From Escherichia phage naswa, in the sequence record MN850595.1: DNA of 64,000 bases, one strand, 5' to 3'. This document shows, in pieces, positions 7,908 through 46,840 of the stretch. The notes beneath the pieces were generated by a model. That model saw only the letters and a program-made list of their open reading frames with translations, ran no database searches and was not told where the DNA came from. Position numbers and translations under genes: made by a program. Each line of letters begins with the position of its first letter. The stretch's first letter is position 1.

Positions 7908-7920
7908 GGAGACCTTACCG

Positions 7921-8277
7921 ATGTCTAAAGTTACTTATCGTGCAGCTATTTACTGCAATGAACACCCAATCAATAATGATGGTCACTGCCTTTTTAAAGA
8001 AAATCAATTGGGCTGTATTGTCCTCCCTGATGAAGGGGAAGGTTATCTGATTGCATTGACAGGGTTTGAACCTGAGGCTCTGGAAGCCAATCTGGACTAC
8101 CTGGTAGAAGAGGGTGCTGCAGACCTGGTTGCCAATGGCCTCTCCATAAGCCTTGACGAAGTAGAGCGCTTCATGGGCAATTACCGTGTAGTGCGTGAGT
8201 TTACTATCGAGGTGGAAACTCCCGAGTGGAGTAGCCATGAAACTAATGCCGAAGAAAAAGAAGAGGAGGTAGAATAA
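7921..8277 (+). CDS. hypothetical acidic protein
   Basis: Start moved to ATG 7921 (AAGGAG 8 nt upstream); N-terminus 'MSKVTYRA' repeated inside 5613..6656; Glu-rich C-terminus. Confidence 0.5.
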   Translation: MSKVTYRAAIYCNEHPINNDGHCLFKENQLGCIVLPDEGEGYLIALTGFEPEALEANLDYLVEEGAADLVANGLSISLDEVERFMGNYRVVREFTIEVETPEWSSHETNAEEKEEEVE

Positions 8278-32018: not shown

Positions 32019-32208
32019 GCTTAAATCTGCATGGAACATCGCTGTGGGGGACGAGATCCGTATCCCAGGTGGAAAGACCATTATGAAAATATCTCGTATC
32101 GAGTACGAAGGTGATCGTGTATTTCATATCTTTGCAGAAGATGGTCGAGAAATTTATATACAGGCAGGCTCTCACATCTATATTCGTAAGAAAGGGGAGG
32201 ACAAATGA
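32011..32208 (+). CDS. hypothetical protein
   Basis: Start moved to ATG 32011 behind AAGGAAGG; overlaps stop of upstream gene. Confidence 0.4.
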   Translation: MFKLKSAWNIAVGDEIRIPGGKTIMKISRIEYEGDRVFHIFAEDGREIYIQAGSHIYIRKKGEDK

Positions 32209-32534
32209 CAGAGATCATCATTTCAACTGCAGGGTATGTATTCCTGACAATCATTGCGCTGGCTATTCTGGTGGCGGTGTATGGATTTGTTATCCTTCCT
32301 ATTCTTGAGACATTTAGTTTGTGTCGGTGTTGGAGAAAAGCTTACGGTCCACAACCATGGAAGGACTGGCCCCACCTGGTGCGCTTAGCGTTCTCTTATG
32401 CTTACGATCACTCCAGTAGTGCATGCATAACCGGATACCACGCCCACAACTGGAGCTGGGAAGGGTTGAGGAAATGGAATGTTACAAAGACCATACCTCT
32501 GCGCATGTACAAACCTAAAAACAAAGACAACTGA
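32205..32534 (+). CDS. membrane protein
   Basis: 109 aa; hydrophobic helix 'YVFLTIIALAILVAVYGFVILPIL'. Confidence 0.5.
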   Translation: MTEIIISTAGYVFLTIIALAILVAVYGFVILPILETFSLCRCWRKAYGPQPWKDWPHLVRLAFSYAYDHSSSACITGYHAHNWSWEGLRKWNVTKTIPLRMYKPKNKDN

Positions 32535-32569
32535 TACTTGAAAATTCCTGGCATATCAAGTATAAGGGG

Positions 32570-33060
32570 GATTTCTAAAATGGATTTCCTCCTTTTGATA
32601 TTTCACCGGGCTGGATATTTTAAAATTCTTAGAAAATCAGAAAATGGATCGAAAACTAAAATGGATTTTTCAGAGTAGGCGCGACAAGCTGAATAGCTCA
32701 TCCTATCGTTTGCACCATATTCCAGACCACCATTATAGATTTCCCACACATGCTAACCTCCCTCTACTAGAACTTCCTCCACTTACCCTTGACCTTCTAT
32801 GGTAACAATCTAACCACTATCTTGAAGTTGCGGTGCAGCTTTCCAGGTACTCGATCTACTTTTCATTTCAGGGCTTGGATTTTCTGAAAATTTTTCTCGA
32901 TAAATTTCTCAGTACTCGATCTGTTTTTCGTTTTCTGAATCGGATTTTCTGGAAATCGTTCCGGATCTCGACCTGAAATTTTTGGGGACGAAATCTATTT
33001 TTCGTTTTCAGAAATGGATTTTTAAAATTTCTATATGGGAATATTTTATGGGGCACTGTT
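32570..33060. repeat. AT-rich degenerate tandem direct repeats (~70-bp period)
   Basis: Recurring 'TACTCGATCT(A/G)(C/T)TTTTC(A/G)TTT(T)C(A/T)G', 'GGATTTTCTG(G)AAA' and 'AAAATGGATTT' units; non-coding. Confidence 0.5.
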
Positions 33061-33083
33061 TTATAGGAAATTGTTACGGAGGG

Positions 33084-33101
33084 TAATTAGCATGCTAATT
33101 A
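33084..33101. promoter_or_regulatory. perfect 18-bp palindrome TAATTAGCATGCTAATTA
   Basis: Read directly; lies in non-coding region. Confidence 0.45.
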
Positions 33102-33167
33102 AATTTATTAAATGCGAGGGATTCTTATTTAGAATTTTGAATGATAATTATTCTCGTTTGCAGAATA

Positions 33168-33349
33168 ACGGGCAGGCCCGGTGATTGTCTCCCGGCCCCT
33201 GCTGCCCCGGCTTGTTATTATAGTATCACACAGGACAAAGAAGGCAAGGATTTTTTGCATAAATTTTTAAATGATAATGATAACCGTTCTCATTTTATGA
33301 AGCGCCCATCCCCGGTGGTTGTCTCCCCCGTCACCGGTGCCTGCCGTCC
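33168..33349. repeat. two direct copies of a GC-rich imperfect-palindrome element (~45 bp)
   Basis: 'GGCAGGCCCGGTGATTGTCTCCC...' at 33168-33211 and '...CCGGTGGTTGTCTCCCCCGTCACCGGTGCCTGCC' at 33305-33349; third inverted copy at 42738-42787. Confidence 0.5.
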
Positions 33350-33499
33350 TTTCGATAGGTATATTATGCCGCCTGGCGGGGCCGCTGTCAACACTTTTCA
33401 AAAAATTTTTCTAACCTGATGCGCTAACCGTTGCAACCTGGCGGGGCCAGCCTGGCAGGTCCGCACTATAAAGTAAACAGCTACAGAAGAGGTACAAAA

Positions 33500-33658
33500 A
33501 TGAAAGGTAATGCTACTCGCCTGGGAAATGTAGTGATTAATGATACGGAAGCTATCGCCCTGGTTGAAAAGGTTATGGCGGGAGCGTTGGAACATAAAGA
33601 AGAGTACGAAAAAATGGTGGTTAACCTGGCGGGGGGCGGCAGGTGGATTCTATCATAA
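33500..33658 (+). CDS. hypothetical small protein
   Basis: 52 codons from ATG 33500 behind AGAAGAGG; partly overlaps CCTGGCGGGG repeat, so coding status uncertain. Confidence 0.3.
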   Translation: MKGNATRLGNVVINDTEAIALVEKVMAGALEHKEEYEKMVVNLAGGGRWILS

Positions 33659-33677
33659 AAATAATTTAAAATAGTCG

Positions 33678-33705
33678 TTGACAACAAGGTTAATCATGGT
33701 ATTAT
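33678..33705 (+). promoter_or_regulatory. sigma70-like promoter (TTGACA-N16-TATTAT)
   Basis: Hexamers read directly. Confidence 0.5.
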
Positions 33706-33755
33706 TACCCTACAAGGTGAACAACACCGCACTAACCAGTAAAGAGGATAAATTT

Positions 33756-33953
33756 ATGAACGCATACGGGATCAAAGTACGTCGCAACACTCGCCAGGTG
33801 GTCACCAATCAAGTGATTTGCCGGGTGGATGTAACCATCAACAACGGGCAAGGCCTTTATAAATTTCGTCGCGGTCATAGCTATACCCTGCAACAGCTTA
33901 ATCGTTGCGCCCTGACAAAAGGTCAGATCAACCACTGGTTTAATAAAAAATAA
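33756..33953 (+). CDS. hypothetical small protein
   Basis: Start moved to ATG 33756 behind AAAGAGGA. Confidence 0.4.
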   Translation: MNAYGIKVRRNTRQVVTNQVICRVDVTINNGQGLYKFRRGHSYTLQQLNRCALTKGQINHWFNKK

Positions 33954-33956
33954 GTA

Positions 33957-33985
33957 TTGACATACAGTCCGACACCAAATACACT
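33957..33985 (+). promoter_or_regulatory. sigma70-like promoter (TTGACA-N17-TACACT)
   Basis: Hexamers read directly. Confidence 0.5.
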
Positions 33986-34017
33986 AAAAGCACAAAAGAC
34001 ACTAAGAGGATAAAATC

Positions 34018-34416
34018 ATGAAAACCACTACCTTTAATTTTGATAATGCAGACTTTTCTTTTTCTGATGTCAAGAACTGCCGCCGTGATCGTGGATTTTA
34101 CAAGGCTTATAATCTGGTGGGCCTGGACGATGACAATAATTTGCACGAAGTAGCTGAGATCCGGTATTATGCCGCCGCCAGCGGGAACACTCACTACTGC
34201 GTGTTTTGGATTCACGACAACAAGAACAATAAGTACGGTTATACTGGCGGCAAGGCGAGCGGTCACGGTTACGATAAAGCTAACGCAGCACTTGAGAGCG
34301 CATTAAATGCTATGGGGATCACTGCCGACGGCTGGATCTACGAAGAAGAGTTTTTGTCGGCACTTGCTGACCACCTGGGCTATAAAAAACACATTGTAAC
34401 ATGCGCCCACGAATAA
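34018..34416 (+). CDS. hypothetical protein
   Basis: Track ORF 132 aa; AAGAGGA SD. Confidence 0.5.
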   Translation: MKTTTFNFDNADFSFSDVKNCRRDRGFYKAYNLVGLDDDNNLHEVAEIRYYAAASGNTHYCVFWIHDNKNNKYGYTGGKASGHGYDKANAALESALNAMGITADGWIYEEEFLSALADHLGYKKHIVTCAHE

Positions 34417-34422
34417 AAATCA

Positions 34423-34450
34423 TTGACACGCTGCAAAATTTAAGTAAACT
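34423..34450 (+). promoter_or_regulatory. sigma70-like promoter (TTGACA-N16-TAAACT) with 5' leader hairpin
   Basis: Followed by GGCGGGAA-TGTT-TCCCGCC stem-loop at 34461-34479 and CA-rich leader. Confidence 0.5.
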
Positions 34451-34498
34451 AGACACAAAAGGCGGGAATGTTTCCCGCCAGCACAAAGGAAAAAGATC

Positions 34499-34894
34499 AT
34501 GAATAAGAACGTACGCCGCATCATGAACGAACTGGCAAACGATGAAAAAATTATTGATATGCATTTGGTCAACATTTGCCGCCGTTGTGTAACATATAAC
34601 AACCGCGCCGCAAAAGCGCGTGAGATGAACGCAAAAGGCACCTTAAAGCCCTTTCAGGTGGTTGTAAAATCTATAACTAGCGCAGCAGGCCAGGCGCAGG
34701 ACCACAACAACGAGAGCGCTAATATTGATCCGTCTTACGTAATGAAACGGATCCGGACTTGCAAGAATAAAGAGCAGGTATATAACGTCATAGATTGGCT
34801 GGACTCCCTGGGCGATGTGGTTTACAATAGGTTTTCTGCAGCTATCGAGATCCAGCTTGACAGATTGGACGGGAAAGTACTAAAAACTTATTGA
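34499..34894 (+). CDS. hypothetical protein
   Basis: Track ORF 131 aa. Confidence 0.5.
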   Translation: MNKNVRRIMNELANDEKIIDMHLVNICRRCVTYNNRAAKAREMNAKGTLKPFQVVVKSITSAAGQAQDHNNESANIDPSYVMKRIRTCKNKEQVYNVIDWLDSLGDVVYNRFSAAIEIQLDRLDGKVLKTY

Positions 34895-34896
34895 GT

Positions 34897-34942
34897 TTAT
34901 TTTTAGATGGCCTTGACACCAGGGCCATCAATAAAGTAAACT
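34897..34942 (+). promoter_or_regulatory. repeated promoter/operator element (copy 1): palindrome GATGGCC-TTGACA-CCAGGGCCATC with TAAACT -10
   Basis: 45-bp element 'TTATTTTTAGATGGCCTTGACACCAGGGCCATCAATAAAGTAAA' also at 35518 and 39251. Confidence 0.55.
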
Positions 34943-34974
34943 AACCACAGTTGAGCGGAAAAGGGGGCTTAAAG

Positions 34975-35094
34975 ATGAGCACTACACGCCAGCACACAAA
35001 GGTAACCATCATCGTTTGCATCATTGGGTACATCCTGGCGCAAATGTTGATGGGTAGCGCCAACGGTGTCGCAAAATTTTTCTTAAACTTTTAA
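34975..35094 (+). CDS. small hydrophobic peptide (39 aa)
   Basis: ATG behind AAAGGGGG; hydrophobic core 'IIVCIIGYILAQMLMG'; below track length cutoff. Confidence 0.3.
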   Translation: MSTTRQHTKVTIIVCIIGYILAQMLMGSANGVAKFFLNF

Positions 35095-35122
35095 TTGACA
35101 AGCTAACTTAAATCGATATAAT
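35095..35122 (+). promoter_or_regulatory. sigma70-like promoter (TTGACA-N16-TATAAT)
   Basis: Consensus hexamers read directly. Confidence 0.55.
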
Positions 35123-35173
35123 AAGCACATAAACGGGAAAACTTCCCAGAACACACAAAAGGAGAAAAACACC

Positions 35174-35515
35174 ATGACTACTATGACCGCCTCAGAAAAA
35201 GCTATGCAGATCGCTGAACTGAAAAAACAGATCGCAGACCTTGAGAATAAGATCGATAACTTTGAAATCGACGAGGACAAGTACGACGAAAACTATGATG
35301 AATGGTTAGACGAGATCTACGGCGAAATTATGATCGGAAACATTTCTTTTCTTCCGTCGCGTATCCTCAAGGAGCTAGATCCTATCGCTTACCGCTGCGG
35401 ATTTAGCGACTACATCGACAGCCTGGATATTGAGGACGATGAAGAATACCAGGAATTACAGACAGAGTTAGAAGAAGCAAAAGAAGAGCTTGCGGAGCTG
35501 GAAGAAAACGAGTAA
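35174..35515 (+). CDS. highly acidic small protein (DNA-mimic candidate)
   Basis: 113 aa; long Asp/Glu runs and coiled-coil-like heptads. Confidence 0.5.
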   Translation: MTTMTASEKAMQIAELKKQIADLENKIDNFEIDEDKYDENYDEWLDEIYGEIMIGNISFLPSRILKELDPIAYRCGFSDYIDSLDIEDDEEYQELQTELEEAKEELAELEENE

Positions 35516-35517
35516 GC

Positions 35518-35562
35518 TTATTTTTAGATGGCCTTGACACCAGGGCCATCAATAAAGTAAAC
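35518..35562 (+). promoter_or_regulatory. repeated promoter/operator element (copy 2)
   Basis: Identical 45-bp element to 34897. Confidence 0.55.
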
Positions 35563-35604
35563 TTTATACTGTTAACACTGAACTAATGCATAGGAGTTAA
35601 AACC

Positions 35605-35850
35605 ATGGCAGCACTAATCACCAAATATTATGCCCCTACCAACACCAAAAGCGCCCGTATCATGGTAAAAGGCTTCGGACGTAAAAAGGTGTACACCTGG
35701 GATTATGCCTTAGACACGGAAGACAACTACACCAACGCAATGACCGATTTTATTAATGAACTAAATAAGCAGATCTTGACAAGTTATAAAGTGACCGATA
35801 TTGCTTATATAGGTGAAGGCGGGATCTGTTTTGTAGGCATTGTGAAATAG
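35605..35850 (+). CDS. hypothetical protein
   Basis: Track ORF 81 aa; 'ATAGGAGTTAAAACCATGGC' start context identical to gene at 40217. Confidence 0.5.
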   Translation: MAALITKYYAPTNTKSARIMVKGFGRKKVYTWDYALDTEDNYTNAMTDFINELNKQILTSYKVTDIAYIGEGGICFVGIVK

Positions 35851-35924
35851 TTATTTTTTCGGTGGTCCTGGTTGCAGGGCCATCTATAAAGATAATTTAT
35901 TAACACCATGAAAGGAGAAAGTAC

Positions 35925-36278
35925 ATGATCAGCGGGGCAAGTTTTATTATTGGCGCTATTGCTACGGCTTTAATTGTAAATAAGATCCAGGATAAAAAGG
36001 AAAGAGGAAGTACCGCCCTTGCAGAATATCCATTTTGGGCATTCAACGATAACGAAGATTATATTATAAAGTATAAAAATAAAGAAGGTGACCAAGTAAC
36101 ACCGCGACCGATCCCGGCTTACAAAATGCAGGAAACACTATACCGCCTGGAGGCGGGAGGCGCAAAAATTGTAGACTTTTGGGGATACGACCACACAGAT
36201 CAGGAAGTTATAAAGCGCCGTATCCGGGCTATTCAGGCCAATATTGAAGTTAGCAAGGGGGGAATATATGAAAATTAA
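35925..36278 (+). CDS. hypothetical protein (N-terminal hydrophobic segment)
   Basis: Track ORF 117 aa. Confidence 0.5.
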   Translation: MISGASFIIGAIATALIVNKIQDKKERGSTALAEYPFWAFNDNEDYIIKYKNKEGDQVTPRPIPAYKMQETLYRLEAGGAKIVDFWGYDHTDQEVIKRRIRAIQANIEVSKGGIYEN

Positions 36279-36465
36279 TTTCGAGAAAATTGTAAAGCGC
36301 CCTCATGATTCCGAAGAGCTGCCAGAACGCCGCCAGCGTAACAATAAACTGAATAAGCCAAAAAGGTTTGGGAAGATCTGGCGTAATCATTATGATCGTA
36401 AATTGCCCGGCCTACTTTTGGAACGTGAACGACAGGCAGAACGATACCGCCATAAAGACAAATAA
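36268..36465 (+). CDS. hypothetical basic protein
   Basis: Start moved to ATG 36268 behind AAGGGGGG; Arg/Lys-rich. Confidence 0.4.
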   Translation: MKINFEKIVKRPHDSEELPERRQRNNKLNKPKRFGKIWRNHYDRKLPGLLLERERQAERYRHKDK

Positions 36466-36471
36466 CAACCA

Positions 36472-36498
36472 ACGCCCCGCCATTGTGCGGGGCTTTTT
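36472..36498 (+). terminator. rho-independent terminator
   Basis: GCCCCGC-CATTGT-GCGGGGC hairpin then TTTTTATTT. Confidence 0.6.
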
Positions 36499-36646
36499 AT
36501 TTCTATCCTACGAATAGCGCCCCTGGTTGGCCCCACAAACGCCACAAAAGCCCCTACCTATGCAATCCCCTTTCTTGACCTGAAAACAACGTCTAGGGCC
36601 GTTTTATGGCGTTAAAAATATTATTGACAGTGATTTTATTCAAAGC

Positions 36647-36675
36647 TTGACACCTTGGAATAGTCCGGATATACT
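36647..36675 (+). promoter_or_regulatory. sigma70-like promoter (TTGACA-N17-TATACT)
   Basis: Hexamers read directly; track ORF 36647 starts inside the -35 and is rejected. Confidence 0.5.
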
Positions 36676-36706
36676 AACCACATCAAAGCAAGAAGGAGTA
36701 AACGCC

Positions 36707-36967
36707 ATGCGTAAATTAAAAAATTTTGATAAAGTAGATGTTGTCCTGAATAATTTTTACTACTGCAATAATAAAGCCGTTTGGTGGCGTGATAGTTCCA
36801 CCGATAAAGTTAAAGCGCGCTTTCTCCAGGGGCACTGGCAAGGCCGCCCAGTGATTAAAATCTTAGGGCAATTGGTAGCGTTTAAAAATTGCCACCGTGT
36901 TGACGACGTTGAAGATATTTTGAACATTTTACGCCACAATAATTTAAAAAATAGTGTTGACAAGTAA
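36707..36967 (+). CDS. hypothetical protein
   Basis: Start moved to ATG 36707 behind AGAAGGAG. Confidence 0.45.
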   Translation: MRKLKNFDKVDVVLNNFYYCNNKAVWWRDSSTDKVKARFLQGHWQGRPVIKILGQLVAFKNCHRVDDVEDILNILRHNNLKNSVDK

Positions 36968-36984
36968 GCCTCAATAAGTATACT
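36957..36984 (+). promoter_or_regulatory. sigma70-like promoter (TTGACA-N16-TATACT) with leader hairpin
   Basis: Followed by GGCGGGAA-AACT-TCCCGCC at ~36996-37013. Confidence 0.5.
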
Positions 36985-37041
36985 TAAACACACAGGCGGG
37001 AAAACTTCCCGCCACTAACAAAGAAAATAGGAGAAAATATC

Positions 37042-37665
37042 ATGACCACCGTTAACATTACTACAGGTTACAATTTATCTTTCGACGTGCTGACCGACGA
37101 ACAAAAAGAAAAAGCCGTTGAAATGGTCCGCGAAAGAGAAGAACACAGCGGGGATAATTTTTTTGCAGAAAGTGTAATTGAATACTATAAAGAATATGTT
37201 TTTCCAGAGTATGGCCTTGAAGATACCGAAGTACATTGGTCAGGCTTTTGGTGCCAGGGTGACGGCGCGTCAATCAGTGCGGAAAACGTGGATTTAGAAA
37301 AATTCTTGCGTAAAGTAAAGGCCCTGACCAAGTTCCGATCAATTCGTCACTTGTTCGGCACAATGCACGATGGCGAGCTATCCGCAAGTGTTGAGCGTGA
37401 TCCATATAGCCGCTATAGTCACGAAAACACTGTAAGCGGGTACATCGATACTACATGGCTAGACCTGACCGCCAAACAAGAAAATAAAGTGGAAGATCTG
37501 GAAGAGCTGATCACCGAGACGGTACGGGAGCTATCCCGCAAGGTTTACGTAGACCTGGAGGAGGCCTATCTTGAGCAATTTACCGCCGAAAACTTGATCG
37601 GCCTTATCGAGGCAAATGATTGGCGGTTTGATGTGGATGAGCATGGCGAGATGAGTTTTTCATAA
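37042..37665 (+). CDS. hypothetical protein
   Basis: Track ORF 207 aa; TAGGAGAA SD. Confidence 0.55.
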   Translation: MTTVNITTGYNLSFDVLTDEQKEKAVEMVREREEHSGDNFFAESVIEYYKEYVFPEYGLEDTEVHWSGFWCQGDGASISAENVDLEKFLRKVKALTKFRSIRHLFGTMHDGELSASVERDPYSRYSHENTVSGYIDTTWLDLTAKQENKVEDLEELITETVRELSRKVYVDLEEAYLEQFTAENLIGLIEANDWRFDVDEHGEMSFS

Positions 37666-37672
37666 ATAAAGT

Positions 37673-37700
37673 GTTGCAATAATCTAAAAACCTGCTATAT
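37673..37700 (+). promoter_or_regulatory. sigma70-like promoter (TTGCAA-N16-TATATT) with leader hairpin
   Basis: Followed by GGGGCAAG-ACG-TTTGCCCC stem-loop. Confidence 0.45.
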
Positions 37701-37754
37701 TAAAACTCAAGGGGCAAGACGTTTGCCCCCACACAAAACAAAGAGGAAAACATC

Positions 37755-38135
37755 ATGAAAAACACTACTAAAGCTATTGACACCGTCATGTTTAACCTGG
37801 TTACATTCCGTGAAGATATGAAAGATCTTCCTCGTGAAACAGTGTGCGACCATATCGAAAACTATCGCAAACTAATCAAAGAGTTGCCTTTAAAACGTGA
37901 TCAATATGCGGCTAACGCCATGCTTAATGCCATGATCAAAAAGATGATCCAGTGTGATTTAACCCTGGCCTATGATTATGCAGGCGGTCGTTTTGCAGTA
38001 TACAATCAGCCCGTGCCCGGTATGAGCACCACCGAAGAATTGCACGCGCTCAATCTAAAACAAGACGTGTGGGATAGTATGCCTCGCGTGGTGGTATGGG
38101 TAGAAAGCGGAAAGATTTACGGCGATAATTTTTAA
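37755..38135 (+). CDS. hypothetical protein
   Basis: Track ORF 126 aa; AAGAGGAAAA SD. Confidence 0.5.
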   Translation: MKNTTKAIDTVMFNLVTFREDMKDLPRETVCDHIENYRKLIKELPLKRDQYAANAMLNAMIKKMIQCDLTLAYDYAGGRFAVYNQPVPGMSTTEELHALNLKQDVWDSMPRVVVWVESGKIYGDNF

Positions 38136-38199
38136 TCAGGTAGCAGGCGGCATATTTGCCGCCTTATTGTTAATCAGAACTGTAAAAGAGGTACATAGA

Positions 38200-38571
38200 A
38201 TGGAATTTATTATTTTGGCTGTATTTGTTGCCTTGTTCAACGCCTGGATCGCTGGCAAGATGGGTAGATCCGCCTTTTTATGGTTTATTATATCTATTTT
38301 CCTGGGGGTGGTTGCAACTATTGTACTTGTTATCCTTGCAATTGTTGACAAGGGGAATAATAGAAAGGGTAAAGTATTTTCAGACCTGTACGACGCTCAA
38401 ACGTTTGTCAACGCCTATTATAGTGATCTTCCAGTCTCCCTACGCTGCAGCCTGGCACAACAAGTTTTCGATGAGGCTAAAACCAGAGATCAAGCCCATG
38501 AGATATGTTTAACTGAGGCGGATCGCCTATTTGAGAGGAATAGAAAATATGTGGGCCAACCGTTTAAATAA
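38200..38571 (+). CDS. membrane protein (two predicted TM helices)
   Basis: Start moved to ATG 38200 behind AAAGAGG; 'FIILAVFVALF' and 'WFIISIFLGVVATIVLVILAIV'. Confidence 0.5.
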   Translation: MEFIILAVFVALFNAWIAGKMGRSAFLWFIISIFLGVVATIVLVILAIVDKGNNRKGKVFSDLYDAQTFVNAYYSDLPVSLRCSLAQQVFDEAKTRDQAHEICLTEADRLFERNRKYVGQPFK

Positions 38572-38770
38572 TGCCACATTAATTAATCCCTTTAGTGAAG
38601 ATTTGAAGCCAGCCGCCTGGCGTGATGGATTCAATAACGAACGCTTTATTTTCAAGCCTGATCTTGAGGAATTTTATAACAATGGATCGAACAACGACAG
38701 AGATAATTTTTCTTGTGGTGTGCGTAGTGATGGTACTCCTGGGGGCCATTGTAAACCACGTCACTACTAA
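38549..38770 (+). CDS. hypothetical protein
   Basis: Start moved to ATG 38549 behind GAGAGGAA. Confidence 0.35.
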   Translation: MWANRLNNATLINPFSEDLKPAAWRDGFNNERFIFKPDLEEFYNNGSNNDRDNFSCGVRSDGTPGGHCKPRHY

Positions 38771-38913
38771 CAGGGGGAAAGGGGGAGACGATGACACCCA
38801 AGGATAAGCCCCGCACCGATAAGGCGCGCCGTGTTATGGTATGGCTTGAGATCATCGCCCTTGAAATATTGTTAGGGGTAGGGATGTACTTTATCGCTGT
38901 AAGTAACTAAGAA

Positions 38914-38945
38914 CGGCCCCCCGATCATGGGGGCCTATCTTTTAA
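38914..38945 (+). terminator. rho-independent terminator
   Basis: GGCCCCCC-GATCAT-GGGGGCC hairpin then TATCTTTT. Confidence 0.5.
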
Positions 38946-38951
38946 AAAAAT

Positions 38952-38991
38952 TCTTCCGGGGTGTTGCAATCCGGTCCGGAATGTGGATAAT
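38952..38991 (+). promoter_or_regulatory. sigma70-like promoter (TTGCAA-N16-GATAAT) with -35 bracketed by TTCCGG/CCGGAA
   Basis: Hexamers and palindrome read directly. Confidence 0.4.
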
Positions 38992-39047
38992 AACAATCAA
39001 CGGGGAGCTAATCCCCACCACCACAAAAACCAGAAAGGAGAAACAAA

Positions 39048-39248
39048 ATGAGCAACAATATCCGCGTTATTAACTTCAAAAAAGAAGAAAAAATTGCCGT
39101 GCTGATTGACGGTCAAGAAATCTTCAAGGGCGACTATGAAGATCATCAAACGGCGATTAGTATCACTCGCGTGATTGGTTACCATAATTTTTACCCCCAA
39201 GGCGCTGAGGCAGCGGTTAAACGAATCAAAGAGATTGTAGGCCTGTAA
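39048..39248 (+). CDS. hypothetical protein
   Basis: Track ORF 66 aa; AAAGGAGAAA SD. Confidence 0.5.
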   Translation: MSNNIRVINFKKEEKIAVLIDGQEIFKGDYEDHQTAISITRVIGYHNFYPQGAEAAVKRIKEIVGL

Positions 39249-39250
39249 AA

Positions 39251-39295
39251 TTTATTTTTAGATGGCCTTGACTCCAGGGCCATCAATAAAGTAAA
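39251..39295 (+). promoter_or_regulatory. repeated promoter/operator element (copy 3, TTGACT variant)
   Basis: 'TTTATTTTTAGATGGCCTTGACTCCAGGGCCATCAATAAAGTAAA'. Confidence 0.5.
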
Positions 39296-39333
39296 TTTAA
39301 ACCCTGTTAAAAATACCACGCAGTTAACAAGGA

Positions 39334-39642
39334 GTGATAGACATGTTTATCCAGGCTAATAATCTTTATTTCTTTGATGGTCAGATCGTAGACGGCGTGG
39401 AGGTGGAAATCACCGGGTGCCCTGGCGGTCAGGTTATGACTTTTCGGAATAATGCCTTTGATGATTCTCATATCGTTATGAGAATGGAAGTTAGTAAGCT
39501 GGATGACAAGAAAACACTTATCGACTATTCCGTCAAAGATCATCCAGACTACCACATGATCTATGGTGATTTGTGCATTGTTGACCGTGACAAGGTTGGC
39601 GGCATTGTGATCGCTATTGTGAACGATGTTTTCTCAAACTAA
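39334..39642 (+). CDS. hypothetical protein
   Basis: Track ORF 102 aa; AAGGAG SD. Confidence 0.5.
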   Translation: MIDMFIQANNLYFFDGQIVDGVEVEITGCPGGQVMTFRNNAFDDSHIVMRMEVSKLDDKKTLIDYSVKDHPDYHMIYGDLCIVDRDKVGGIVIAIVNDVFSN

Positions 39643-39659
39643 TTTCAGCAGGTAATTTT

Positions 39660-40010
39660 ATGAAAGTAAAACTATATTACCTTAATGAGCTTAACCCCCT
39701 TGCCCAGGTCCGCGCCCTGGCTAATACCTTGATTTGTGAGAAATCTGTATATTGTGTTGAGCTTAACGCCATGCGTGAACGTCTCAAAGGTGGTTACTTT
39801 GACATCCATGCTGCAATCAACGGCCTGAATATAGAATTTATCCGCTTACGTAACAGCCGCCAGAATCTGGCAAGAATGGAACAAGATCCGGCCCACCTTC
39901 GTAAGCTGGTTATTGAAAATCATCTGATGTTTAATGCCGATGGTGATTATTACCATTTTCACCGTAAACGCTGGTACCGTAGCGGCAATATAGGAAAGAA
40001 TGCAAAATAA
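39660..40010 (+). CDS. hypothetical protein
   Basis: Track ORF 116 aa. Confidence 0.5.
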   Translation: MKVKLYYLNELNPLAQVRALANTLICEKSVYCVELNAMRERLKGGYFDIHAAINGLNIEFIRLRNSRQNLARMEQDPAHLRKLVIENHLMFNADGDYYHFHRKRWYRSGNIGKNAK

Positions 40011-40044
40011 GGCCCCTGGCAGGGCCTGCAGCGATATAATCACA

Positions 40045-40078
40045 TAAAGGCTATGCGGTTGCATAGCCTTTATTATTT
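40045..40078 (+). terminator. rho-independent terminator
   Basis: AAAGGCTATGC-GGTT-GCATAGCCTTT hairpin then ATTATTTT. Confidence 0.6.
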
Positions 40079-40216
40079 TGGCGTTACAGCGGCCCCCAAG
40101 GCGCTTAAAAAATTTTTAAAGAAGTACTTGCATCAAGTCCTACAATATGGATAATAAAGGGTGTCGGGGGGCGGTGAGGCCTCCAATCATTAACCGGATA
40201 GATAGGAGTTAAAACC

Positions 40217-40501
40217 ATGGCTATTGTTACCGTTGGCGATGTAGTGGAAATGGAAGCAAAATACTTAAAAGCGGGTATGCATATCCTACGCAACGATCTT
40301 GAACTAGTCCTGACAATGGTTGACTATAACCCAGGGCAAGATTATCCAAGCATCGACTACTTTTTTGAGTATGTTGATGAAGAGTTGAAAGAGGATGAGG
40401 CCTATTGCGGTGAGTTCTGCAATTTCTTTTGTCCTGATGAGGTTGTAAAGGTTATCTATCAACCTGGCGTACCTTTCCCGCTGCACGCTATCAATAAATA
40501 A
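40217..40501 (+). CDS. hypothetical protein
   Basis: Track ORF 94 aa; TAGGAG SD. Confidence 0.5.
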   Translation: MAIVTVGDVVEMEAKYLKAGMHILRNDLELVLTMVDYNPGQDYPSIDYFFEYVDEELKEDEAYCGEFCNFFCPDEVVKVIYQPGVPFPLHAINK

Positions 40502-40564
40502 ACCTGGTGGGGCCGAAAAGGCCCCCTCCTGAAACTATGAAAAAATAAAGAGAGGTAAATCATC

Positions 40565-40798
40565 ATGATGGAACAAATTAAACGCGCTGAGTCTATTAAT
40601 GGCAATGTGATCTATTTTGTCAGCAAAAACGAAAAAGGCGTACCATATGCGGCGGTAATAGTACAACCTGACGGCGATTATTGGTTTACTGTATACGGAT
40701 CTTATTCTTTCGGGCGTCCGGTTCATGATAGAATTTTGAAAGTAGCAAATCCGACCGGGAAAAATATCACAGCAGAAAAATTTTTTGAAAATAGTTGA
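40565..40798 (+). CDS. hypothetical protein
   Basis: Track ORF 77 aa; AGAGAGG SD. Confidence 0.5.
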   Translation: MMEQIKRAESINGNVIYFVSKNEKGVPYAAVIVQPDGDYWFTVYGSYSFGRPVHDRILKVANPTGKNITAEKFFENS

Positions 40799-40822
40799 CA
40801 TGACCATATAAGACTGTAATAT
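40795..40822 (+). promoter_or_regulatory. sigma70-like promoter (TTGACA-N16-TAATAT) with leader hairpin
   Basis: Followed by GGGGGGCAAC-AA-GCCCCACC and CCACAAAGAGGA leader. Confidence 0.5.
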
Positions 40823-40874
40823 ATAAATCAAAGGGGGGCAACAAGCCCCACCAACCACAAAGAGGATAAAAATC

Positions 40875-41054
40875 ATGGCTATTATTGCAAAGACTGAGAT
40901 CGTAGGCTTAGATTCTATTCTCCTCGCATATGAGGAAGCTATAGAAATGTATGTGGTTTCCTATGGTGAGTATATTCGTGAATATAAATCTATTGATCTG
41001 GCTTTTGAATGTTATATTCGCCAGGTAAATAAAGCATATGATGATTATCGTTAA
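40875..41054 (+). CDS. hypothetical small protein (59 aa)
   Basis: ATG 40875 behind AAGAGGA; below track cutoff; translated by eye. Confidence 0.4.
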   Translation: MAIIAKTEIVGLDSILLAYEEAIEMYVVSYGEYIREYKSIDLAFECYIRQVNKAYDDYR

Positions 41055-41060
41055 AATAGT

Positions 41061-41088
41061 TTGACAACAATTACAAATCGGGTAGAAT
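41061..41088 (+). promoter_or_regulatory. sigma70-like promoter (TTGACA-N16-TAGAAT)
   Basis: Followed by 'TGTATTTCGTAGGGCGG' leader (also at 41581) and GGCGGCA-ATGA-TGCCGC hairpin. Confidence 0.5.
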
Positions 41089-41139
41089 GTATTTCGTAGG
41101 GCGGCAATGATGCCGCTCACAACTAAAAGAGAGATCATC

Positions 41140-41334
41140 ATGGCGCTTAAAAAACTAACAAGCAATACTCGTTGGGATGAAATCGACGGGGAAGTTTACA
41201 TTTTTGCCCGTAAACCAGGGGATCAAAAATGGTCAAAGGCTTTTACTTGCCATCCTGCAACAATAGATCTGATAAAAAGTCAAGGACTACGTGAAGCAGT
41301 AGCAAGAAGTTTACTGATCCCTTGTAAAAATTAG
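41140..41334 (+). CDS. hypothetical small protein
   Basis: Start moved to ATG 41140 behind AAAGAGAG. Confidence 0.45.
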   Translation: MALKKLTSNTRWDEIDGEVYIFARKPGDQKWSKAFTCHPATIDLIKSQGLREAVARSLLIPCKN

Positions 41335-41345
41335 TTTGACAACAG

Positions 41346-41373
41346 TCAACAATCTGGTAAAGTGTACTACATA
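41346..41373 (+). promoter_or_regulatory. sigma70-like promoter (TTGACA-N16-TAAAGT)
   Basis: Followed by GCGGGAA-TACT-TCCCGC hairpin and 'CCATTAATGAGGGTA' leader. Confidence 0.5.
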
Positions 41374-41411
41374 GCGCGGGAATACTTCCCGCCATTAATG
41401 AGGGTAATTTA

Positions 41412-41549
41412 ATGAAAACTTTCAACGCAACAGCCTCGACAATTGGTTATATTATTACAGTACAAGCCGTGGATCTGGTAGCAGCAGCAAACAAGATTAA
41501 AAAGATGATTCCGCCAGGTAGTGAATTTTCCGTTTGGGAAGTAAAATAA
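41412..41549 (+). CDS. hypothetical small protein (45 aa)
   Basis: ATG 41412 behind GAGGGTAA; below track cutoff. Confidence 0.35.
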   Translation: MKTFNATASTIGYIITVQAVDLVAAANKIKKMIPPGSEFSVWEVK

Positions 41550-41552
41550 ATC

Positions 41553-41580
41553 TTGACAATAGTTTATTACTTGATAGACT
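41553..41580 (+). promoter_or_regulatory. sigma70-like promoter (TTGACA-N16-TAGACT)
   Basis: Followed by 'TGTATTTCGTAGGGCGG', hairpin and 'CCATTAATGAGGGTA' leader. Confidence 0.5.
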
Positions 41581-41632
41581 GTATTTCGTAGGGCGGGGCA
41601 ATAAGGCAACGCCCATTAATGAGGGTAGAATC

Positions 41633-41737
41633 ATGTTAGAGAAAATTTTCACGGTTGTAGTAGTTGGCCTGGCATTATCGGTTGGAGTGGTTGCAACTAT
41701 GGCTAACATGATCCTATCTTCCCACGGTATCGGTTAA
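41633..41737 (+). CDS. small hydrophobic peptide (34 aa)
   Basis: ATG 41633 behind GAGGGTAG; 'FTVVVVGLALSVGVVATMANMIL' single TM-like segment. Confidence 0.35.
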   Translation: MLEKIFTVVVVGLALSVGVVATMANMILSSHGIG

Positions 41738-41738
41738 G

Positions 41739-41963
41739 GTGAATCAAATGATCACGAATAAGACAGGTAAAACAGAATTTTTACGCGGCTTGCAAATAGG
41801 TAAGCCTGAGATCTGGCATTGCACTAAAACACCACGTGACGAAATGAAAGACTTCACCGCCACGCTGCAACGGGTAAAGATATCCATCACGCAGAAAAAG
41901 GCCTTGATAGTGGTGGAAGGTGAGATCCCTCAAACCGTTGTTATAGTTGAGCGTACAGCATAG
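41739..41963 (+). CDS. hypothetical protein
   Basis: Track ORF 74 aa. Confidence 0.4.
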   Translation: MNQMITNKTGKTEFLRGLQIGKPEIWHCTKTPRDEMKDFTATLQRVKISITQKKALIVVEGEIPQTVVIVERTA

Positions 41964-42054
41964 TTTAATTTATAGCGATACCTGAAAATTAACCAATAAA
42001 TCATAAACAGGCGGTTACCGCCGCCTTAAACGTAGCAGAAAGAGGCTAGACACA

Positions 42055-42339
42055 ATGAAAAAGATGATCGCAGTAGTTGCCCTGGTTGTTGGACTTAATG
42101 CGCCTGTAATGGCTAAAGAGCTGGCAAAAGAGGTTAATCTAACGGATATCCATGCCGTCAATAAAATCGGGGTTACTTATCGCTTATGCCTTGCCGCTAA
42201 AACTTTTAATGACGGCACAACAGAGTACTACGGATTCGAGGGTATCCGGTGCGGTGAGCTTGCTCGCGACCTTAAGGAAGATCCAGACCTGGAAGATCTG
42301 CCCATCACCGTAAACGGTAAAGCTTACGTAAACCGTTAA
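42055..42339 (+). CDS. secreted small protein
   Basis: 94 aa; signal-peptide-like 'MKKMIAVVALVVGLNAPVMA'; leader hairpin GGCGG-TTA-CCGCC upstream. Confidence 0.5.
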   Translation: MKKMIAVVALVVGLNAPVMAKELAKEVNLTDIHAVNKIGVTYRLCLAAKTFNDGTTEYYGFEGIRCGELARDLKEDPDLEDLPITVNGKAYVNR

Positions 42340-42488
42340 CCGTGAAAAAGATAATCATTACCTTGGGGATTGTGGCGGGATCGCTGGCGCTCTTTCCCCT
42401 TATGGTTAGATATGTGCTGATCAGTATTGTCCTGGTGGTCAGTGATCTACTAGAAACGGTTGGCACCTTGTTTTAAAGAGCGATAAAA

Positions 42489-42680
42489 ATGAATGTTGAA
42501 CAAGTTAGAAAGGTATTGGCGGTACTGCGTTATCATAATCATAGAAAGGTCATAGACGATCCTGATTATGTTGATTCAAGTCTGGAAGAGGATACACTAC
42601 AAGCCATAAGTAACATGCAAGAATTGCTAAAGCGCATGACAGAGAAAAACCGACCGGACTACATAGGCGAAAAAATATAA
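42489..42680 (+). CDS. hypothetical protein
   Basis: Track ORF 63 aa. Confidence 0.45.
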   Translation: MNVEQVRKVLAVLRYHNHRKVIDDPDYVDSSLEEDTLQAISNMQELLKRMTEKNRPDYIGEKI

Positions 42681-42695
42681 TCCTTATTAACTAGA

Positions 42696-42726
42696 AAACA
42701 GGGCTTGCAATGGTCCTGTTTTTTGT
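42696..42726 (+). terminator. rho-independent terminator
   Basis: AACAGG-GCTTGCAATGGT-CCTGTT hairpin then TTTTGTT. Confidence 0.45.
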
Positions 42727-42737
42727 TATACTTATTA

Positions 42738-42787
42738 CACGGCAGGCACCTGGCGACGGGGGGAGACAATCACCGGGCCTGCCTGTC
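42738..42787. repeat. GC-rich imperfect-palindrome element (inverted copy)
   Basis: Reverse complement carries 'GGCAGGCCCGGTGATTGTCTCCCCCCGTC..CAGGTGCCTGCC', matching the two copies at 33168-33349. Confidence 0.5.
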
Positions 42788-42808
42788 ATATAAGAACTAT
42801 AAAAACCG

Positions 42809-42837
42809 TTGACATCTGCCAGGTGGTGGGGTAACAT
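42809..42837 (+). promoter_or_regulatory. sigma70-like promoter (TTGACA-N17-TAACAT) with leader hairpin
   Basis: Followed by GGGGCAAAAGTGCCC-like hairpin and ACACAACAACCAGAAGAGAGG leader. Confidence 0.45.
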
Positions 42838-42891: not shown

Positions 42892-43164
42892 ATGTCAAGC
42901 TGGATTAATCAAGAAGTCGAATCACGTTTTAATGCTATTTGGGATCTCATCGAAAAAGAGGACGGAACATCAAGCCCTTATCTCAATAATCTTGAATTCC
43001 ATTTCGTGGAAGCGATGAACGCAGAACATGATCACGAAGGTGGTGCGGATGAGTTCGCTAAAGGGTATGGCTTCAACAATGCCAACGAAATGATCGAGGC
43101 GGTTGTACTCCAGGCTGAGGAAGATTATCAATTAAAAACGCTTGAATTCTGCCGCCGTAAGTAA
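42892..43164 (+). CDS. hypothetical protein
   Basis: Track ORF 90 aa. Confidence 0.5.
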   Translation: MSSWINQEVESRFNAIWDLIEKEDGTSSPYLNNLEFHFVEAMNAEHDHEGGADEFAKGYGFNNANEMIEAVVLQAEEDYQLKTLEFCRRK

Positions 43165-44399: not shown

Positions 44400-46840
44400 C
44401 TTCCCCCCCTACCATAAACGGCCCTACCTGGCAAGTGGAATAATTGACGAGCCATCAATCCCACACACTGTACAAATATACATGGAAAATAACTATTGCA
44501 TAATTTTTCATTGTGTGGTAGCAAGGCCATTTTTACCCGTTTTACCTTCCAAAATTGCACGTAATGCCGCTATTGCACAAATTTTAACCTGATGCACATC
44601 TCCAATATCTTGTCAACAACTAAAAATCTTTATAAGTCATGCACTTACATAACCACAAAAGCGTGTTCTACGTGAAAAATCGAGTATAACTATAGCCGCC
44701 AGATCTCAGAATTTACGTACGCTCACCAGTCTATAGCCTGCTAAGTATTTATTCCAACCATAGAATAACGGAATAGTCAATACCTGCATAAAATAATTAT
44801 TCGTGTAAACTGCATAACATAAATCGGCTAGGATGTCAACATTTTTCGTAAACAGCTCGAAATTATAACGGTGAGTTATAATAAACAGAGAAATCTTTAG
44901 TCGTCTAATGTTTACTGTACATTACTATACTGACTGGAATCATTAGATGACTAAGAGAAAGATAAGAAATCATTAACAATGCAATTGTTTTATTCGTAAC
45001 AATAAGGCAACTATGCAAACGAATGGCATGGCGCGACGGAGTCGCGACATAATATAAAAGCAGTAACCATCACCCCCGTGATAGTTTGTCTGCAAACTAT
45101 TAATCAGATCATAGTTGCCTTGTATTTAGTTAATCATGACATAACAAGCAGGGCAACTATAGATCTGCTAATAGTTGCCCTGCTTTTATATTATGTCATG
45201 CTAATTATAATCAGTGCGATTATTGTCATGTATAATTATTGTCATGCAAACGAATGGCATGGCTGATTATCGGTGTGTAAACAGTCAATCATGTAAATGG
45301 TTAGCATGTGAACAATCAGGAATGTAAACAATCCAGTGTGTAAACTAATAGGTGTGTAAAAGTGTCATGTTGTGTCAGTTAGGTCACATTATGTCAGACA
45401 AGTTTTTCTCCTCTTTGTCAAGTGCTGCATGAAAAATTTACAAGCTTGTATGGTAGCATTTTTGCGGCCCTGTTTACATTCAGGAGTGTATGTATAATCC
45501 TTGGTGTGTGGGCGTTTAGACGTCTAGACGGTTGGAAGTATGCAGGTCAATATCTAATCTATTGGCTGCTAACTATATCCCACACAAATGATAAGAAATA
45601 TAATTGTTATATGCGTAAACTGTAACTCATGTTATCAATCCCTGTATGTATCGCCAGTGGTGCGCATAATGGGTATTATGTTAAATTGCCCGTAATGATA
45701 ACTATTCTCACAATGATAGGTATTCTCATTCACCCCCACAAGATAGGTTGCAAATGTTGTGCCACTGTGTGAACGGCCTAGCCTATTAATTTGCCTCACT
45801 GCCTTGATATTTGAGAATTGTTATAAGAATGAGAAGTATTCCCATTTCGTCCGCCTGGCAGCACTCCAGTCGCTACCGGCTCCTGACAGGGCAGCTCTCC
45901 TGTAGGTCAGGTCAAAATCGTGGTAGAATTGGGCCTATTCAGATATTTCTGGCTGACTCTTCAGGTCTGTGTGAGAAAAGCCAACCTTTCCGGCGGCGGG
46001 GAGGGGTCAATTAAAAAATTTACGTGGTGTATGAAGCGCTCTTCAGGTAAGGCAGGTATTATGTGATGAAACCCTCTTCAGGCAATGATATTTGTGGGTG
46101 TGATATTTGCTGGAAAGCCAGATATGACGGGACTCCCGGCGGGGCAGGGGTAGTACAGACAGGGAAAATATGGGGGATGTAGTTGGGGAAATTGATCAGG
46201 CAGGTAGAGTATGGAATATGTTACAAGTATGTTAAATATGGAGGTTGAATATCTGCAGGATTTGTGTGTAAAATCAAAGACTTAAGTGGTGTTGTGGTAT
46301 TTTCTATAAATAATTCAAGTTTAATAGGTAATATTTGTCTCTATCCACTTTGTGTGGTAAACAGATTCAGATGAAATTGGTTTACAAGTGTATACATAAT
46401 ATACAAATTAAAGATACAAGAAACCCCCCTCCCCCTTCGGCTACCATTCACCTTTTCCTCTGACTGGTACTTAAACACTTATTCAGACTCTTCAGGTTAT
46501 CACCCATATATCATATGGCAGTGACTGGTGTCCTCCGGCCCCTCTTTCGTCACCCGTCCGCTTCGCCATGCTAATGCCATAGCCAATGGTTCGGTTGTTC
46601 ACCCTGTTCACTCAGGTGTATCTCCATACCCCTTCAAACCGAAGAGAACAGAAAACCCGAATTACTCGGTAAAAGAAAAGAGAAGAACTTAATTTTATCA
46701 GGATAGGCAAGAATGTCAAGGCATGACTGCTCACTAAACAAGCAAACAGTCATGTGTGGTAGGTAAGTGATTGTGGTGGTAGGAAATTTAGTTGAAAGAT
46801 GTGTTATAGGTGCGCTTCCAGCACTTTAGCCGGGCAGCTA
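44400..46840. other. ~2.4-kb non-coding convergence region with several repeat families (candidate origin / packaging / terminus region)
   Basis: No long co-directional ORF; 20-bp direct repeat at 45013 and 45244; ATAGTT(G/T) palindromes 45082-45182; six TGTAAAC-like iterons 45276-45361; CTCTTCAGG x5 from 45957. Confidence 0.5.
45276..45361. repeat. six iteron-like repeats (TGTAAAC core, 14-17 bp period)
   Basis: Cores at 45276, 45293, 45307, 45323, 45339, 45355. Confidence 0.5.

Follow-up and report, generated by a model that had tools for sequence, protein, structure and literature searches.

A conserved promoter-proximal element in the early region of rV5-like phages and in freshwater phage contigs

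Early-gene control in the rV5-like phages, which are common therapy and typing phages and include the BASEL phage Bas49 (EmilHeitz), is essentially uncharacterised. In the 64,000-nucleotide stretch of Escherichia phage naswa analysed here (sequence record MN850595.1; the whole stretch is referred to as the window), a first-pass annotation had pointed to a GC-rich, imperfectly palindromic element of about 45 bp, with two direct copies at 33.2-33.35 kb and one inverted copy at 42.74 kb, and had offered a structured RNA, recombination or inversion sites, or regulator binding sites as its role. The question raised by this locus is what kind of element stands at these three places and at which level it acts. 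As laid out below, it is a conserved, previously undescribed non-coding element with no Rfam family, coupled in one fixed orientation to predicted promoters, and it may act as a cis-acting 5' leader of the transcripts that start there.

All three copies are real. The exact 16-nt core GGAGACAAYCACCGGG is found at 33177-33192 and 33311-33326 on the minus strand (copies A and B) and at 42762-42777 on the plus strand (copy C), where 0.01 occurrences would be expected in the window and none of 100 shuffles contained three or more. When read as GGAGACAA..., copies A (33168-33212; RNA sense AGCCGGGGCAGCAGGGGCCGGGAGACAAUCACCGGGCCUGCCCGU) and B (33303-33347; RNA sense GGCAGGCACCGGUGACGGGGGAGACAACCACCGGGGAUGGGCGC) lie on the minus strand and copy C (42741-42786; GGCAGGCACCUGGCGACGGGGGGAGACAAUCACCGGGCCUGCC), the complete version, on the plus strand; the longest inverted pair, 33165-33193 and 42761-42789, spans 29 nt with 93% complementarity. 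With GC contents of 0.76 (A), 0.73 (B) and 0.72 (C) against 0.28-0.49 in the flanks and 0.43 in the window, the copies are, as the first-pass annotation had it, far GC-richer than their surroundings, and they are the only 45-nt segments in the 64 kb that reach a GC content of 0.72 or more. The description as an imperfect palindrome of about 45 bp holds for copy C, which alone carries the full GGCAGGC...GCCTGCC arrangement. In copy A the left arm is kept but the right half differs, and in copy B the right arm is kept and the left one lost. The direct repeat formed by A and B exceeds 45 bp, with an AT-rich palindromic box to the left of each copy (33137-33161 and 33273-33291). The associated motifs, which had been placed at 33368, 33434 and 33623, are the three occurrences in the window of the word CCTGGCGGGG (0.03 expected), with true positions 2-4 nt away, at 33372, 33437 and 33625. 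The first of these lies inside the spacer of the predicted copy B promoter, on the opposite strand to it, and the other two (33437-33446 and 33625-33634, plus strand) are the same as the ACCUGGCG..GGGG part of copy C and, judged by their letters, look like partial or scrambled plus-strand remnants.

Along its whole length, the 32-44 kb part of the window shares 99.7% identity with the rV5-like Escherichia phage EmilHeitz, a Vequintavirus, and it is matched by 254 phage records; the open reading frames (ORFs) within and around the element region are all small, lie on the plus strand and are annotated as hypothetical proteins, and copy C stands about 1.6 kb before the end of this plus-strand cluster.

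Promoters were called by sequence match to the sigma70-type -35/-10 consensus. For each copy in the window there is a -10 hexamer of sigma70 type 24-36 nt upstream (24 nt for A, 29 nt for C and 36 nt for B), and the coupling to a promoter in one fixed orientation holds for every one of them. The predicted promoter of copy A, PA (33217-33247, minus strand), has a perfect -10 hexamer, TATAAT, at 33222 to 33217 with TGTGATAC before it and a weak -35 (TTGCCT, 19-nt spacer). PA was read from the sequence and not called by the consensus scan, and a PA-like arrangement is also present in loci L010, L013, L017, L048, L053 and L065 of the comparison set. The predicted promoter of copy B, PB (33363-33391, minus strand), matches the consensus at 11 of 12 positions (TTGACA-17-CATAAT) and has a GC-rich spacer. 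The predicted promoter of copy C, PC (42705-42732, plus strand; TTGCAA-16-TATACT, 9 of 12 positions), has the TG of an extended -10 and overlaps the terminator hairpin of the upstream gene (42692-42725, plus strand), its -35 lying in the hairpin loop; in phage anhysbys the hairpin stem differs by a compensatory pair of changes, C>T/G>A (AACAGG/CCTGTT versus AATAGG/CCTATT). Copy C is followed by a second predicted promoter (42809-42837, plus strand; TTGACA-17-TAACAT) and the ATG of the next gene at 42892. On neither strand was an intrinsic terminator called at any of the three copies, and the only one nearby is the hairpin at 42692-42725; in the window A and B have promoters but no terminator before them.

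The same spacing is found when the count is extended to all loci. They contain 71 unique core matches, of which around a dozen are chance hits that fall in coding DNA of high GC content. A perfect TATAAT lies 21-39 nt upstream of the core in 34 of the 71, and a hexamer with at least five of six matching positions in 49, with a mode of 22-24 nt, whereas a perfect hexamer occurs on the antisense side in none of the 71 and at 1.8% of random positions. This distance places the start of the element roughly between +1 and +10 of the predicted transcripts.

The element is also widespread in related phages, in which the first-pass annotation had proposed to search for it. The A/B region is matched by 254 phage records and the C region by 215, with two to four element-matching places in each Vequintavirus genome. 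In Phapecoctavirus, Mydovirus, Certrevirus, Seunavirus and in Erwinia, Serratia and other phages, the match is limited to about 60-90 nt around the element, and the core is conserved across genera of the Vequintavirinae and Stephanstirmvirinae. The bracketing of about 9.4 kb by inverted copies is likewise real and syntenic in other genera: the A(-)/C(+) pair recurs about 9.6-10.7 kb apart in Phapecoctavirus (anhysbys, 43415 and 53239; ESCO13, 138361 and 148250) and is present in Certrevirus CR3. The predicted promoters at both ends of the bracketed segment point outward from it, and leftward tandem promoters are also predicted in CR3 and anhysbys.

Pattern scans of viral and metagenome collections recovered the core in freshwater phage contigs as well (Ga0255088, Ga0255090, Ga0255098, Ga0228700 and a 215-kb ERZ650304 contig), at a density of three to six copies per locus of about 13 kb. 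The one freshwater locus searched by blastn, L014, had no match among phage records, and tblastn found no similarity between the freshwater loci and the rV5-like loci compared. The freshwater copies are highly uniform and consist of a terminator hairpin with a T-run, TATAAT, about 7 nt and CAAUACCUGARAACGGGGGAGACAAWCACCGG; the order of terminator, -10 and element is invariable, and a second promoter and a gene usually come next. Among the 27 freshwater copies analysed for their downstream context, 19 have the layout of copy C, with another -10-like hexamer and, beyond it, a co-oriented ORF that starts 103-222 nt after the core in 17 cases and at about 400 nt in two; a few copies have a terminator 35-60 nt downstream instead.

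Bacterial genomes gave a different picture. A 19-nt version of the core occurs at only six places in 596 Gb of bacterial genomes, which is about chance level, and one of the six looks homologous; a blastn search of 5,426 Escherichia coli genomes gave no match to the element, and on that ground an E. coli chromosomal origin was rejected. The lone homologous-looking case is locus L038 (CAZFPB010000002.1, a Pseudobdellovibrionaceae metagenome-assembled genome), where a 5-kb stretch of a 330-kb contig assigned to a bacterial bin holds three copies, at about 673, 4026 and 5349; this may be a prophage or a mis-binned phage.

Known families did not account for the element. Rfam 15 gave no hit at gathering score in the window or in nine related loci, an E-value search of 32400-33800 returned chance-level hits only, all outside the element, and ARAGORN found no tRNA or tmRNA in the window. 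A sequence-string search of the literature for the motif gave no relevant description, and a literature search for Vequintavirus transcriptomes likewise returned nothing of relevance. The occurrence of the 16-nt core across subfamilies and in unrelated freshwater phages, combined with the lack of an Rfam or literature match, marks a shared regulatory device. Several resemblances were considered and set aside. Mimicry of the ToxI antitoxin RNA, as in phage phiTE, was rejected, as the pseudo-ToxI lies at 106.7 kb of phiTE, a different locus, and the common GGTGATT 7-mer is on the other strand. CRISPR I-E/I-F repeats, sigma54 -24/-12 elements, rrn leader boxA/boxC, and IHF and DnaA boxes were dropped as chance resemblances, as were RfaH ops, with GGCGGTAG in a few copies only, and G-quadruplexes, whose G-tracts are not conserved. 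Separately, a tRNA-Met and a tRNA-Ile are annotated over the copy A homolog of Klebsiella phage K45PH128C2 (L002 1211-1364, equal to OY978796.1 10891-11044); ARAGORN does not reproduce them and they appear to be annotation errors.

We then analysed whether the element behaves as a structured RNA. Copy A of the window folds at -27.3 kcal/mol (z -2.75 against shuffles), with the core in the apical region, and copy C at -23.8 kcal/mol (z -2.79); counting the A copies of CR3 and anhysbys, four folds thus score better than shuffles (z between -2.75 and -3.3) and hold the core at or close to the apical loop, and the hairpins begin at about +1 to +8 of the predicted transcripts. In the A-type copies of five genera, a closing stem AU(A/G)GCG / CG(C/U)(U/C)AU begins at the predicted +1. 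This stem is 80% paired, as compared to 73.5% in shuffles (none of 500 reached the observed value) and 24-55% when slid, it shows changes on both sides at three pairs, and its G.U pairs work on this strand only. The invariant part of the element is the primary sequence GAGACAAWCACC, with two direct CACCKG words and a G-run at its flanks. The earlier proposal of a structured RNA is thus supported in part, by the compensatory changes in the A-type closing stem; a family-wide fold is not supported, conservation being mainly one of primary sequence.

The reading that we favour, at somewhat less than an even chance, is that the element is a cis-acting 5' leader that marks the transcripts of one promoter class and acts at the RNA level. 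On this view, phage promoters of one special sigma70-type class would begin their transcripts with this conserved sequence: the tandem promoters PB and PA would fire leftward through B and A into a non-coding region of about 1 kb (32535-33499), and PC would fire rightward through copy C and the second promoter into the next small gene. In the rV5-like copies a GC-rich stem would sequester the 5' end, while the invariant CA-rich, Shine-Dalgarno-like GGAGACAAWCACC would stay exposed for a conserved host machine or a phage factor, and the leader would set the fate of the transcript, either through elongation and termination in the manner of nut or put sites or through 5'-end stability. Action in cis as RNA is favoured because the element starts at the predicted 5' end, because the A-type stem covaries, because most copies lie in the distal part of a gene's leader, and because conservation in phages of different hosts that share no proteins points to a universal host partner. 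We infer in this that the predicted promoters fire, that RNA and not DNA is the active form and that there is an effect downstream. As to that effect, within the leader reading antitermination or anti-pausing is only slightly more probable than a 5' stabiliser or tag, with other effects somewhat behind.

A number of observations weigh against such a leader. RNAalifold on MAFFT alignments gave no consensus structure across the family, and a 4-bp hairpin abutting the core, tried in two registers, is 75% paired versus 74.6-74.8% in shuffled controls and carries no covariation signal. Shuffled sequences fold as well as window copy B (z -0.68) and the freshwater copies do, and for that reason a double-stranded DNA operator fits the conservation of primary sequence equally well. 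The element accompanies just three of the window's many early promoters, and transcription through A and B would run into non-coding DNA rather than into genes. In the freshwater cassettes, finally, each terminator is followed by a promoter of its own, which argues against strong antitermination.

An operator of this kind, bound by a phage or host protein at the promoter-proximal 35 bp, would repress the promoter, block elongation or load an elongation factor as Q does at qut, and we regard it as unlikely but as deserving serious attention. The earlier suggestion of a regulator binding site did point in the right direction, given the promoter coupling in one orientation and the strong conservation in relatives. 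Within the 35 bp, two direct CACCKG repeats 22-24 bp apart flank the G-run and GAGACAA, the direct CACC repeats being visible in alignment A2; the primary sequence is conserved without a family-wide fold, its position relative to promoters is fixed, and some freshwater copies have a terminator 35-60 nt downstream in the style of lambda PR'-tR'. However, an operator would need the same binding protein in phage groups without detectable common proteins in the compared loci, the distance to the -10 varies between 21 and 39 nt with no helical phasing, and the covariation of the A-type stem, its one-strand G.U pairs and the start at the predicted +1 are left unexplained. The element could instead be the 5' domain of a short trans-acting phage RNA, serving as a small-RNA seed or as a decoy or sponge for 30S, Hfq or CsrA, with dosage supplied by several promoter-driven copies. 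In at least two of the 27 freshwater copies an intrinsic terminator was scored 35-37 nt downstream with no co-oriented ORF, and by eye a few others look alike, bringing the total to five; such copies would yield RNAs of about 80-100 nt; a U-rich run follows 12-20 nt past the core in most freshwater copies, no ORF lies downstream of A and B, and a terminator-like AU-rich hairpin comes after the anhysbys copy A. What makes this less likely still, though a serious rival too, is that A, B and C in the window have no terminator following them, that 19 of the 27 freshwater copies and window copy C stand upstream of a co-oriented gene, and that no complementary target was found in the loci examined, every core match being in the promoter-sense orientation.

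The remaining explanations place the function in the DNA around the element. It could be a recombination substrate, a mobile regulatory cassette whose conserved sequence serves the swapping of neighbouring gene cassettes by homologous recombination and whose core has no function of its own, similar to the promoter-early stem-loops (PeSLs) of T4-like phages, which are composite terminator/promoter cassettes (PMC2839356, PMC4122927). As in PeSLs, at copy C and in the freshwater copies a stem-loop terminator abuts or overlaps a sigma70-like early promoter, and the repeats lie between small ORFs of a plastic early region. The alignments of relatives break next to the element in a way that resembles the mosaic breaks known from PeSLs. 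For many relatives the match to the C region begins no earlier than 42721 and continues rightward, the upstream gene being a different one, which would put a mosaic junction at the terminator/promoter; alignments of the A/B region break at about 33462-33590, and the window holds other repeated terminator-promoter cassettes. In PeSLs, however, a Shine-Dalgarno sequence and start codon follow directly, whereas here a conserved transcribed core of 35-45 nt, which is not part of described PeSLs, comes after the promoter and usually a second promoter before the gene. The core is moreover common to phage groups without other similarity, and recombination alone does not explain a near-identical 16-nt core in such otherwise dissimilar groups; three copies per rV5-like genome are also too few for shuffling about 35 genes. 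We therefore consider the pure cassette very unlikely, and note that the promoter and element may also serve as a recombination junction. Scarcely more can be said for a component of a replication origin, in which G-rich PB and PA transcripts would form an R-loop or primer or would activate an origin in the adjacent non-coding region. PB and PA do point into an ORF-free region of 1 kb with iteron-like repeats of 65-74 nt and CTCGATC (GATC) words next to the replication gene module; equivalent repeats exist in Certrevirus and Mydovirus, the leftward tandem promoters are kept in CR3 and anhysbys, and G clusters occur in the first 30 nt of the predicted RNA. The rV5 genome paper, which describes a circularly permuted genome with sigma70-type promoters throughout, identified no origin and shows an ORF-free 'non-coding' box. 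Yet copy C and many freshwater copies (three to six per 13 kb) stand in ordinary gene leaders, and an R-loop leaves the invariant GAGACAAWCACC unexplained. Two further readings are effectively excluded. The inverted copies, a 29-nt inverted repeat with 93% complementarity, could have served as crossover sites for inversion of the 9.4-kb segment, as the first-pass annotation had considered and as the short inverted repeats bracketing multi-kb segments in Hin, Gin and Cin systems would suggest. Unlike in those systems, no recombinase was found, no genome shows the alternative orientation, and the repeats are promoter leaders. Neither a recombinase nor another Pfam domain was detected in ten proteins, namely nine of the largest ORFs between the copies and the flanking ORF at 32205-32534, and a further Pfam scan of flanking genes again gave no recombinase, with DUF7170 for PVP-SE1 gp201 as the only hit across both scans. 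Single colinear alignments run across the A/B cores in 111 records and across the C core in 79, at least 80% of 32-44 kb is covered on one strand in 35 records, and the A(-)/C(+) orientation is fixed in Phapecoctavirus and CR3; an inversion would, in addition, disrupt the unit, given that the plus strand carries every gene within the segment and around it. The other excluded reading takes the A/B region as protein-coding, in line with the ATG-started 92-aa coding sequence (CDS) bas49_0104 (33141-33419) annotated in EmilHeitz and some relatives. This ORF has no ribosome-binding site. In-frame stops interrupt it in all other genera and in L013, a close Vequintavirus relative, where the DNA itself is nonetheless conserved. 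These results correct the annotation, as the CDS over copies A and B and the tRNA-Met of the Klebsiella phage both appear to be spurious.

Among systems that act on nascent transcripts, the closest likeness of the favoured cis-acting leader is to HK022 put and the lambdoid nut sites. The element stands just downstream of predicted early promoters, is orientation-dependent and lies in the transcript sense, its two loci point in opposite directions as putL and putR do, and by analogy its cis action would be on host RNA polymerase, in surroundings rich in terminators. HK022 put, with which we compared it by description and not by sequence, suppresses terminators further along by binding the zinc-binding domain of the RNA polymerase beta' subunit. 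It spans about 70 nt with two long stem-loops, whereas a single imperfect hairpin is the most that the element shows, and no fold is common to its family. To our knowledge it bears no resemblance to boxA. A second class of comparable elements are the stabilisers at the 5' end of mRNAs, which are 5'-terminal stem-loops or Shine-Dalgarno-like STAB-SD elements. The element is similarly close to the transcript 5' end, the 5' end is paired in A-type copies and the core contains GGAG; on the other hand, stabilisers need no invariant 12-nt sequence, and the A-type copies of Seunavirus and Phapecoctavirus have CGAGACAA, which lacks GGAG.

In the rV5-like genera, A-type and B-type copies have a further companion. 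One to four palindromes of the form AATGAGAATSATTCTCATT lie directly downstream of the cores in all of these genera, and they resemble the enterobacterial Fur box in that they match its 19-bp consensus GATAATGATAATCATTATC and overlap in pairs at a 6-bp offset. Matches were scored by mismatch count to the 19-bp consensus and not by a weight matrix, and by this measure the palindromes have 3-5 mismatches in the window and 2-5 in relatives (L018 990-1072, L020 1721-1762, L021 1067-1091, L027 3098-3186 and L029 5101-5153). After copy A, in the RNA sense, the palindrome at 33137-33161 contains two overlapping matches at the 6-bp offset, TTGAATGATAATTATTCTC and GATAATTATTCTCGTTTGC, and the one after copy B, at 33273-33291, is GATAATGATAACCGTTCTC with three mismatches. 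The density of Fur-like matches near the cores is 14.6 per kb versus 0.42 per kb overall, which is about 34-fold higher, and overlapping sites at 3- or 6-bp offsets are the reported pattern of Fur clusters. In contrast to typical Fur boxes, the predicted boxes lie 20-120 nt downstream of the start site and not over the -35/-10, and there are none at window copy C or at the freshwater copies. The boxes follow PA and PB and do not overlap a convincing promoter; any effect of Fur would thus be exerted as a roadblock. The arrangement suggests that host Fur could gate the leftward transcripts in rV5-like phages, and through such Fur-box-like operators a strictly virulent coliphage may read the iron status of its host.

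A bolder version of the leader reading is that GGAGACAAWCACCGG and its flanks would represent a new class of promoter-proximal RNA signal, widespread in phages: the nascent leader would engage RNA polymerase or the 30S subunit, as host machines conserved everywhere, and so reprogramme elongation, termination or decay of defined early transcripts without a dedicated phage protein, in common among unrelated virulent phages of different hosts, and in rV5-like phages it would be wired to Fur via the operators directly downstream. We think this unlikely in its full extent, if far from fanciful. If its target is host RNA polymerase or the ribosome, the element would offer a compact, portable control part and a new case of protein-independent transcript control.

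The non-coding region itself, into which PB and PA are predicted to transcribe, contains direct repeats of 65-74 nt and CTCGATC words between 32535 and 33499. Its part at 32535-33100, which adjoins the replication-gene side, carries direct repeats, (A)ATGGATTTT words and the CTCGATC (GATC) words, and is a candidate origin or packaging region; the GGTCTCGATCG repeats in Certrevirus and Mydovirus are the equivalents of these repeats. Three CDS annotated in EmilHeitz within the region (32833-32976, 32982-33086 and 33141-33419) look spurious, and an unannotated 52-aa ORF at 33500-33658 has a good ribosome-binding site (AGAAGAGG).

In place of copy B, Phapecoctavirus, Seunavirus, Certrevirus, Mydovirus and Hena1-like phages have a conserved non-coding block of about 100 nt (CTACCGGCGATCCACC...GCCCCGCC...GGGGTGGCG; L018 1206-1300, L020 1892-1990, L021 1215-1310, with equivalents in L019 and L002), which does not occur in the window. 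This block has a strong predicted leftward promoter of its own, shows some compensatory changes and gave no Rfam hit; its strand cues conflict, the promoter pointing leftward and the G.U pairs rightward. A Fur-like site (45691), GAGAAT words and a locally GC-rich stretch (about 45848) mark another non-coding patch near the strand switch of the window, at 45690-46010. It contains CTACCGGC, but blastn found no homology between it and the conserved block of the other genera. Directly upstream of the -35 of A-type promoters in non-Vequintavirus genera there are GTAAA-N5-GTAAA direct repeats (L020 1855-1880, L021 1185-1210, and L019, L002 and L018), and TGTAAC-N5-TGTAA stands between the element and the second promoter in freshwater phages (for example L014 3290-3310). 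From their sequence, both may represent a common activator site or an UP-like promoter feature, and they resemble the CpxR box.

Other repeats in the window also carry promoter sequences. A PeSL-like hairpin, GATGGCC..GGCCATC, with TTGACA in its loop and a -10 after it, is present in four copies (34894-34942, 35515-35563, 35849-35897 and 39249-39297), and a second promoter repeat family has three copies (41053-41108, 41328-41383 and 41545-41600). Outside the early region, a perfect 29-nt inverted repeat is found at 6054-6082 and 7916-7944, 1.8 kb apart. One of its arms is the ribosome-binding region and the first eight codons (ATGTCTAAAGTTACTTATCGTGCA) of a plus-strand gene, so that two divergent genes appear to start identically.

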